From Escherichia coli (GTDB lineage: Bacteria; Pseudomonadota; Gammaproteobacteria; Enterobacterales; Enterobacteriaceae): a DNA stretch of 768 nucleotides. The DNA lies in assembly GCF_003334355.1 (NCBI RefSeq), contig NZ_QOWP01000102.1. One strand, 5' to 3'. Made by a program: the position numbers and the translations under genes. Below, in pieces: positions 2 through 768 of this stretch (position 1 is its first letter; every line of letters starts with the position of its first letter). The notes below the pieces were generated by a model. The model worked only from the letters and a program-made list of their open reading frames with translations, did not search any database and was not told the DNA's origin.

Positions 2-24
2 GGTAATGACTCCAACTTACTGAT
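2..24. repeat. IS1 terminal inverted repeat, right end (IRR) relative to the transposase reading direction
   Basis: Plus strand 2-24 is ggtaatgactccaacttactgat. The reverse complement of 746-768 is GGTAATGCTGCCAACTTACTGAT. The two match at 20 of 23 positions, with mismatches clustered at positions 8-10 (ACT vs CTG). Confidence 0.85.
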
Positions 25-519
25 AGTGTTTTATGTTCAGATAATGCCCGATGACCTTGTCATGCAGCTCCACCGATTTTGAGAACGACAGTGACTTCCG
101 TCCCAGCCTTGCCAGATGTTGTCTCAGATTCAGATTATGTCGCTCAATGCGCTGAGTGTAACGCTTGCTGATAACGTGCAGCTTTCCCTTCAGGCGTGAT
201 TCATACAGCGGCCAGCCATCCGTCATCTATACTACGACCTCAAAGGCCGACAGCAGGCTCAGAAGACGCTCCAGTGTGGCCAGAGTGCGTTCACCGAAGA
301 CGTGGCCACAACCGTCCTCCGTATCCTGTCATACGCGTAAAACAGCCAGCGCTGACGTGATTTAGCACCGACGTAGCCCCAATGTTCGTCCATTTCAGCG
401 CAGACAATCACATCACTGCCCGGTTGTATGCGCGAGGTTACCGACTGCGGCCTGAGTTTTTTAAGTGACGTAAAACCGTGTTGAGGCCAACGCCCATAAT
501 GCGTGCACTGGCGCGACAT
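17..519 (-). pseudogene. insB: IS1 insB (InsB' transposase catalytic portion), disrupted by a frameshift and a premature stop
   Basis: Seen in sequence: two minus-strand ORF fragments, 259-519 (86 aa, [14 protein letters not shown]...[18 protein letters not shown]) and 17-226 (69 aa, [69 protein letters not shown]), lie in different frames. Canonical InsB is about 167 aa in one frame (from memory). The first fragment matches InsB up to ...TVVA and then diverges. My manual translation of the second fragment's frame upstream of 226 gives [30 protein letters not shown], which matches canonical InsB (...[31 protein letters not shown]...) except for a TAG at 227-229 where Trp is expected. This implies a 1-nt deletion near 303-306 (GCCAC where the prototype has GCGCAC) plus a nonsense codon. 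Confidence 0.85.
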
Positions 520-713
520 CCGACGCCATTCATGGCCATATCAATGATTTTCTGGTGCGTACCGGGCTGAGAGGCGGTGTAAGTGAACTGCAGTTGCCAT
601 GTTTTACGGCAATGAGAGCAGAGATAGCGCTGATGTCCGGCAGTGCTTTTGCCGTTACGCACCACGCCTTCAGTAGCGGAGCAGGAAGGACATCTGATGG
701 AAATGGAAGCCAC
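438..713 (-). CDS. insA: IS1 InsA: zinc-finger/helix-turn-helix DNA-binding protein, transposition inhibitor and N-terminal part of the InsAB' transposase
   Basis: Seen in sequence: the 91-aa [94 protein letters not shown] starts at GTG (rc of 711-713) and stops at TAA (rc of 438-440). It has a CxxC...CxxC zinc-finger-like motif (CPSC, CSHC). It ends in LKNSGRSR, encoded by TTA AAA AAC TCA..., as in canonical IS1 InsA. The length and near-identity to InsA are recalled from memory. An SD-like AAGGTG (rc of 719-724) sits 5 nt upstream of the GTG. Confidence 0.93.
454..464 (-). promoter_or_regulatory. Programmed -1 ribosomal frameshift site (A6C motif TTAAAAAACTC) joining the insA and insB' frames
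   Basis: Seen in sequence: the reverse complement of 454-464 is TTAAAAAACTC. In the insA frame it reads TTA AAA AAC (L K N), 6 codons before the insA stop. The insB' frame (the 259-519 ORF) reads LKKLRPQ across the same site. Established knowledge: IS1 makes the InsAB' transposase by a -1 frameshift at A AAA AAC. Confidence 0.85.
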
Positions 714-718
714 GCAAG

Positions 719-761
719 CACCTTAAAATCACCATCATACACTAAATCAGTAAGTTGGCAG
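719..761 (-). promoter_or_regulatory. Putative insA promoter and ribosome-binding site, partly within IRL
   Basis: Seen on the minus strand: candidate -35 CTGCCA (rc of 756-761), a 16-nt spacer, -10 TATGAT (rc of 734-739), and SD AAGGTG (rc of 719-724) 5 nt before the GTG start. Established knowledge: the IS1 insA promoter overlaps the left end and is repressed by InsA binding. The exact hexamers are my assignment, not verified. Confidence 0.4.
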
Positions 762-768
762 CATTACC
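746..768. repeat. IS1 terminal inverted repeat, left end (IRL), adjacent to the insA start
   Basis: The reverse complement of 746-768 is GGTAATGCTGCCAACTTACTGAT, the imperfect inverted partner of 2-24. It lies 33 nt upstream of the insA GTG start on the minus strand. Confidence 0.85.

Follow-up and report, generated by a model that had tools for sequence, protein, structure and literature searches.

The 768-nucleotide stretch of Escherichia coli DNA analysed here (contig NZ_QOWP01000102.1), referred to as the window, very probably holds a non-autonomous, IS1F-type isoform of the insertion sequence IS1, which lies on the minus strand. Both the IS1F-type element and its InsA protein are already known, and the window carries a defective copy of a catalogued isoform. 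By descent, as judged from 99% nucleotide identity to intact copies, the element is a member of IS1, but it is defective and non-autonomous because its insB' frame is interrupted. Descriptions of IS1 and its divergent IS1F type date back to 1991, and hundreds of public genomes already contain this InsA protein and the 768 bases in exactly the same form. Beyond the correct annotation, namely a 767-bp, non-autonomous IS1F-type element with an intact insA gene and an insB' pseudogene, the result is of little importance. Such a label would, however, mark the ends as probably usable by the transposase of other IS1 copies, and it aids the reading of IS1-mediated rearrangements near mdtM-brnTA of E. 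coli.

Extent and isoform of the element

Alignment of the window with the IS1 elements of E. coli K-12 revealed a single IS1 element of 767 bp, one base below the canonical 768 bp (Table 1). Base 1 of the window belongs to the flanking DNA, as the minus strand of the window terminates with GTCATTACC followed by C, compared with GTCATTACC in IS1A and IS1F; the extra terminal C is missing in both K-12 references. With this length and with its ends, the element agrees with the description of the IS1 family as elements of about 768 bp bordered by imperfect inverted repeats of about 23 bp which start with GGT(A/G)ATG.

Table 1. Features of the IS1 element in the window. Positions are those of the window.
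Feature	Position	Strand	Basis or remark
Complete IS1F-type IS1 element	2..768	-	End-to-end alignment with K-12 IS1F and IS1A
Left inverted repeat (IRL), GGTAATGCTGCCAACTTACTGAT	746..768	-	23/23 to K-12 IS1F, 22/23 to IS1A
Promoter-like site, CTGCCA, 16-nt spacer, TATGAT, overlapping IRL	734..761	-	Consensus scan, predicted
insA, intact, 91 codons, zinc ribbon and helix-turn-helix	438..713	-	ORF, Pfam, NCBIfam
5' portion of insB', reading frame shifted by the deletion, ending with TGA 261..259	259..519	-	ORF
A6C (AAAAAAC) -1 ribosomal frameshift motif, conserved	456..462	-	IS coordinate 307
Site of 1-nt deletion, G lost (GGCGCAC to GGCCAC)	between 304 and 305	-	Alignment
TAG stop codon interrupting the original frame of insB', TGG in intact copies (Trp163 of InsAB')	227..229	-	Alignment
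Remaining 3' end of insB', 69 codons and stop, severed from the rest	17..226	-	ORF
Right inverted repeat (IRR), read inwards GGTAATGACTCCAACTTACTGAT	2..24	-	Alignment; position 19 is C, T in IS1A

The alignment with K-12 IS1F contained seven mismatches and one gap (99.0% identity; 98.96%), compared with 70 mismatches and one gap (90.8% identity; 90.76%) for K-12 IS1A. Between the two K-12 elements we counted 73 mismatches, which equals the published figure for type IV IS1; K-12 IS1F represents this type and differs from the consensus by 73 mismatches, corresponding to 90.5% identity (PMC12428005). Type IV was first described by Umeda and Ohtsubo in 1991, as cited in PMC12428005. In comparison, no more than 9 mismatches separate IS1B and IS1C from IS1A (PMC12428005). 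An identity of the element with the K-12 prototype IS1A was rejected on the basis of the 90.8% nucleotide identity and five substitutions in InsA.

The proposal of the preliminary description that the window contains a divergent IS1 isoform is thus supported by these identity values and by copies with 99.3-99.5% identity on plasmids of Shigella flexneri, Shigella dysenteriae and Shigella boydii. Its contrast with the K-12 prototype is correct insofar as the element is not IS1A-like, but the isoform is not absent from K-12, as strain MG1655 harbours IS1F with insA7 (b4294) and the pseudogene insB7 (b4576). K-12 IS1F shares with the window copy the inverted repeats, the A6C motif and the TAG codon in insB'; the seven substitutions and an additional 1-nt deletion in the window copy (767 versus 768 bp) set the two elements apart.

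The closest intact relative found is a copy on the S. flexneri plasmid NZ_CP026099 (WP_223368647.1), which is three substitutions and one deletion apart from the window copy. The InsA proteins of both copies are identical, and both have H111 in InsAB'. In contrast to the window copy, the S. flexneri element has 768 bp and an uninterrupted insAB' frame, with TGG in place of TAG and GGCGCAC in place of GGCCAC. Intact relatives, for example in O157 strains, are named 'IS1-like element IS1F family transposase' by PGAP, and the copy in the O157 Sakai record is labelled IS1F. The name IS1F is therefore used here as the closest among the annotations of K-12, O157 Sakai and PGAP, and a closer named isoform may exist. 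A literature search on IS1N, IS1SD, IS1X2, IS1S and IS1H yielded plasmid-annotation papers which list these names and contain no sequences to compare.

InsA protein and the ends of the element

The insA gene starts with GTG (713..711, minus strand), stops with TAA (440..438) and occupies IS positions 56-331, the same as insA1 in K-12 IS1A. This agrees with the general layout of the K-12 elements IS1A and IS1E, in which insA likewise spans positions 56-331, the A6C motif is located at 307 and the insB' frame extends from 250. Pfam matches to the InsA domains Zn_ribbon_InsA (PF03811, E = 5.9e-20) and HTH_Tnp_IS1 (PF12759, E = 7.4e-30) demonstrate that insA is not a chance open reading frame, and the protein scored 41.1 bits on NCBIfam model NF050000 for the IS1/IS1595 zinc-binding domain (cut-off 28). 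Exactly this InsA protein was found on 856 public contigs under the name 'IS1-like element transposase [Enterobacteriaceae]'.

A comparison of InsA with InsA1 of K-12 IS1A revealed 86 identical residues out of 91, the differences being exactly V4I, S7R, D15E, T69S and I80V. The first three had been noted in the preliminary description as well. Its fourth, T68S, was misplaced by one residue, as position 68 is an invariant alanine and the change concerns residue 69. A further change of IF to VL near residue 80 had been proposed, from which I80V persists against IS1A; F81L does not, since the window protein and IS1A share L81. The complete change holds against InsA2 and InsA3 of IS1B and IS1C, which carry F81 and differ from the window protein at six positions (V4I, S7R, D15E, T69S, I80V and F81L). 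The prototype sequence to which the preliminary description referred is hence a real K-12 sequence, namely that of insA2/insA3 of IS1B/IS1C (...NTIFRHLK), and not that of IS1A/IS1E. We rejected the explanation of F81 as a plain error, as this residue is genuine in the InsA proteins of IS1B and IS1C. The substitution L81F was reported for three non-consensus K-12 elements (PMC12428005).

InsA7 of K-12 IS1F is identical to the window protein at 89 of 91 positions; at the remaining two, the window protein has H34 and T52 as IS1A does, whereas InsA7 has P34 and K52. Judged from the sequences, the five substitutions against IS1A are conservative markers of the lineage which give no sign of a new function. 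The dN/dS values against IS1A amounted to 0.07-0.10 for insA and 0.08-0.14 for insB'. Such low values indicate that purifying selection acted on the isoform during its divergence, when it was still a functional element, and that its inactivation is recent.

Both 23-bp inverted repeats were identical to those of K-12 IS1F at all 23 positions. At IRL, position 4 is A in the window copy (GGTAATGCTGCC...) and G in IS1A (GGTGATGCTGCC...), so that the element begins with GGTAATG (768..762, minus strand) instead of GGTGATG. The same replacement had been suggested for both ends; it applies to the left one, while the GGTAATG start of IRR (window 2..8, GGTAATGACTCC...) is common to the window copy and IS1A, and the right end departs from the prototype at position 19 instead. 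IRL and IRR match each other at 20 of 23 positions, and the changes at IRL position 4 and IRR position 19 raised this symmetry. The inverted repeats of IS1F were previously described as distinct from those of IS1A-E (PMC12903888). A consensus promoter scan gave three sites compared with 0.5 expected, and the predicted site at IRL resembles in its location the IS1 promoter PIS1, which partly overlaps IRL (PMC12903888). A scan for terminators across the window found none.

The interrupted insB' frame

The insB' frame of the window copy is dead and represents a pseudogene. The A6C sequence, known as the programmed -1 frameshift motif (PMC12903888), is identical across all copies compared, and the frame is disrupted further downstream by two lesions. 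The first one is the loss of a single G, which is retained in K-12 IS1F, in IS1A and in the copies of O157, strain ET776 and S. flexneri. The second one is the TAG codon at 229..227 (minus strand), which the window copy has in common with K-12 IS1F, where the 1-nt deletion is absent. The preliminary description mentioned neither of these defects.

As a consequence of the deletion, the predicted frameshift product has 151 instead of 232 amino acids and leaves its frame after residue 137. Of the 131 positions in the DDE_Tnp_IS1 domain (residues 102-232), no more than 36 (residues 102-137), about a quarter, are still read in frame. The repair of both lesions in silico restored a protein of 232 amino acids which scored 243.5 bits on the IS1 transposase model NF033558 (cut-off 100), in which the Pfam domain DDE_Tnp_IS1 spans residues 102-232, and which is identical to InsAB' of IS1A at 217 of 232 positions. 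Unlike the window copy, IS1A is a mobile element whose transposase frame is uninterrupted (PMC12428005). In agreement with the alignment, identical copies carry the PGAP label 'IS1 family transposase; frameshifted; internal stop'.

Downstream of the TAG codon, the translation of the remnant at 17..226 shows no difference from the C-terminus of intact InsB. This open reading frame of 69 codons begins with an ATG directly after TAG and constitutes the C-terminal remnant of InsB, in the original frame.

An artefact of sequencing as the origin of the 1-nt deletion was rejected, because 30 or more complete, independently assembled E. coli chromosomes contain the full 768 bases at 100% identity, and because 352 E. 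coli records match a diagnostic stretch of 131 nt, which covers both lesions, at 99% identity or more.

The TAG codon is absent from the copies of O157, ET776 and S. flexneri. Within insA, on the other hand, the sites at IS positions 156, 178 and 210 place K-12 together with O157 and apart from the window copy. As these two patterns are incompatible with a single tree, the shared stop codon may have originated either from a parallel mutation of TGG to TAG or from gene conversion between copies.

Genomic setting and proposed role

The genomic context was read for four exact copies of the 768 nucleotides. All four adjoin the brnT-brnA toxin-antitoxin pair, and in three of them mdtM is located on the IRL side; K-12 IS1F, in contrast, lies between fecI and yjhU. 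Among 5426 genomes, 1006 show the arrangement mdtM-IS1-brnT. They include strain ET776, in which an intact IS1 with an annotated programmed frameshift occupies the same mdtM and brnT junctions and the brnT gene is frameshifted. The presence of this intact element at the same junctions suggests that the lesions in insB' arose in place or came by conversion, and that the decay is recent.

Target-site duplication was assessed at the chromosomal locus of strain M217, which harbours an identical copy, as the window itself holds one flanking base. The flanks of the M217 element, TTAAAATTT (2992-3000) and CGACAGCGA (3768-3776), form no target duplication of 8-9 bp, which suggests a deletion or a recombination beside this element after its insertion.

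InsA is known to bind both inverted repeats and the promoter overlapping IRL, whereby it represses transcription and inhibits transposition, and the DDE transposase InsAB' results from a -1 frameshift that occurs rarely (PMC12903888). In line with this published IS1 biology, the window copy should still be able to supply InsA, which would bind the inverted repeats and the promoter overlapping IRL, repress the transcription of IS1 and compete with the transposase. Transposase itself would not be made, and as it cannot be supplied by the element, the copy is regarded as non-autonomous and presumably movable only by InsAB' of another IS1 acting in trans. K-12 IS1F does not transpose by itself (PMC12428005), but overproduction of consensus InsAB' in trans led to its mobilisation, and 44% of the insertions among the non-consensus elements were then due to K-12 IS1F (PMC12903888). 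Mobilisation in trans would be expected for the window copy as well, because the two elements agree in their ends and in the kind of their defect.

One can speculate that the element has been domesticated and that, following the loss of its transposase, selection has maintained insA for a repressor which acts in trans and damps the transposition of other IS1 copies in the genome, a reading to which we give a small chance. It draws on the known ability of InsA to repress transcription and to inhibit transposition (PMC12903888), on the distribution of the damage, with insA, the promoter-like site and both inverted repeats untouched next to an insB' frame with two disabling lesions, and on the similar state of K-12 IS1F, which combines an intact insA7 with the pseudogene insB7. 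The occurrence of the allele in 352 records, with the four exact copies read in context at one locus, fits it too. However, the insB' frame has roughly double the length of insA, so that neutral decay is expected there first, and the intact IS1 at the same junctions in ET776 suggests that this decay is recent. Moreover, the nearest intact copy is separated by four changes, one of them synonymous in insA, and these contain no statistical signal of selection; three substitutions and one deletion are too few to distinguish an insA gene kept by selection from one which has not yet decayed. It is equally improbable that InsB-dead copies of the IS1F type, here the window copy and K-12 IS1F, are retained for a trans-acting insA repressor which lowers IS1 activity genome-wide. 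If this were true, such copies would act as a domesticated 'immunity' gene and would not be neutral remains.

A co-adaptation of T69S and I80V in the helix-turn-helix with IRL position 4 and IRR position 19, which would define a specificity group not cross-reacting with prototype IS1, is very improbable: the changes in the DNA-binding region and in both repeats do co-occur in the lineage, and those in the repeats increase their symmetry, but all five InsA changes are conservative, and the efficient mobilisation of K-12 IS1F by InsAB' of the consensus (IS1A/E) type (PMC12903888) indicates that the ends of IS1F are recognised across types. We retain the assignment of the window to a defective, non-autonomous copy of the IS1F type.

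Two of the records with an exact copy showed additional features. In strain 720632, the copy adjoins brnT-brnA, and its IRL side meets a truncated yjiJ, with yjiK-yjiM in opposite orientation, rather than mdtM. The altered junction is suggestive of a rearrangement associated with IS1, and the strain has at least 40 IS1 places. The 22-kb record NZ_LT985269, which is labelled as a plasmid, contains yjiN-mdtM-IS1-brnTA with the exact window sequence, and this segment, either a captured chromosomal fragment or part of a mislabelled contig, adjoins aph(6)-Id and aph(3'')-Ib.
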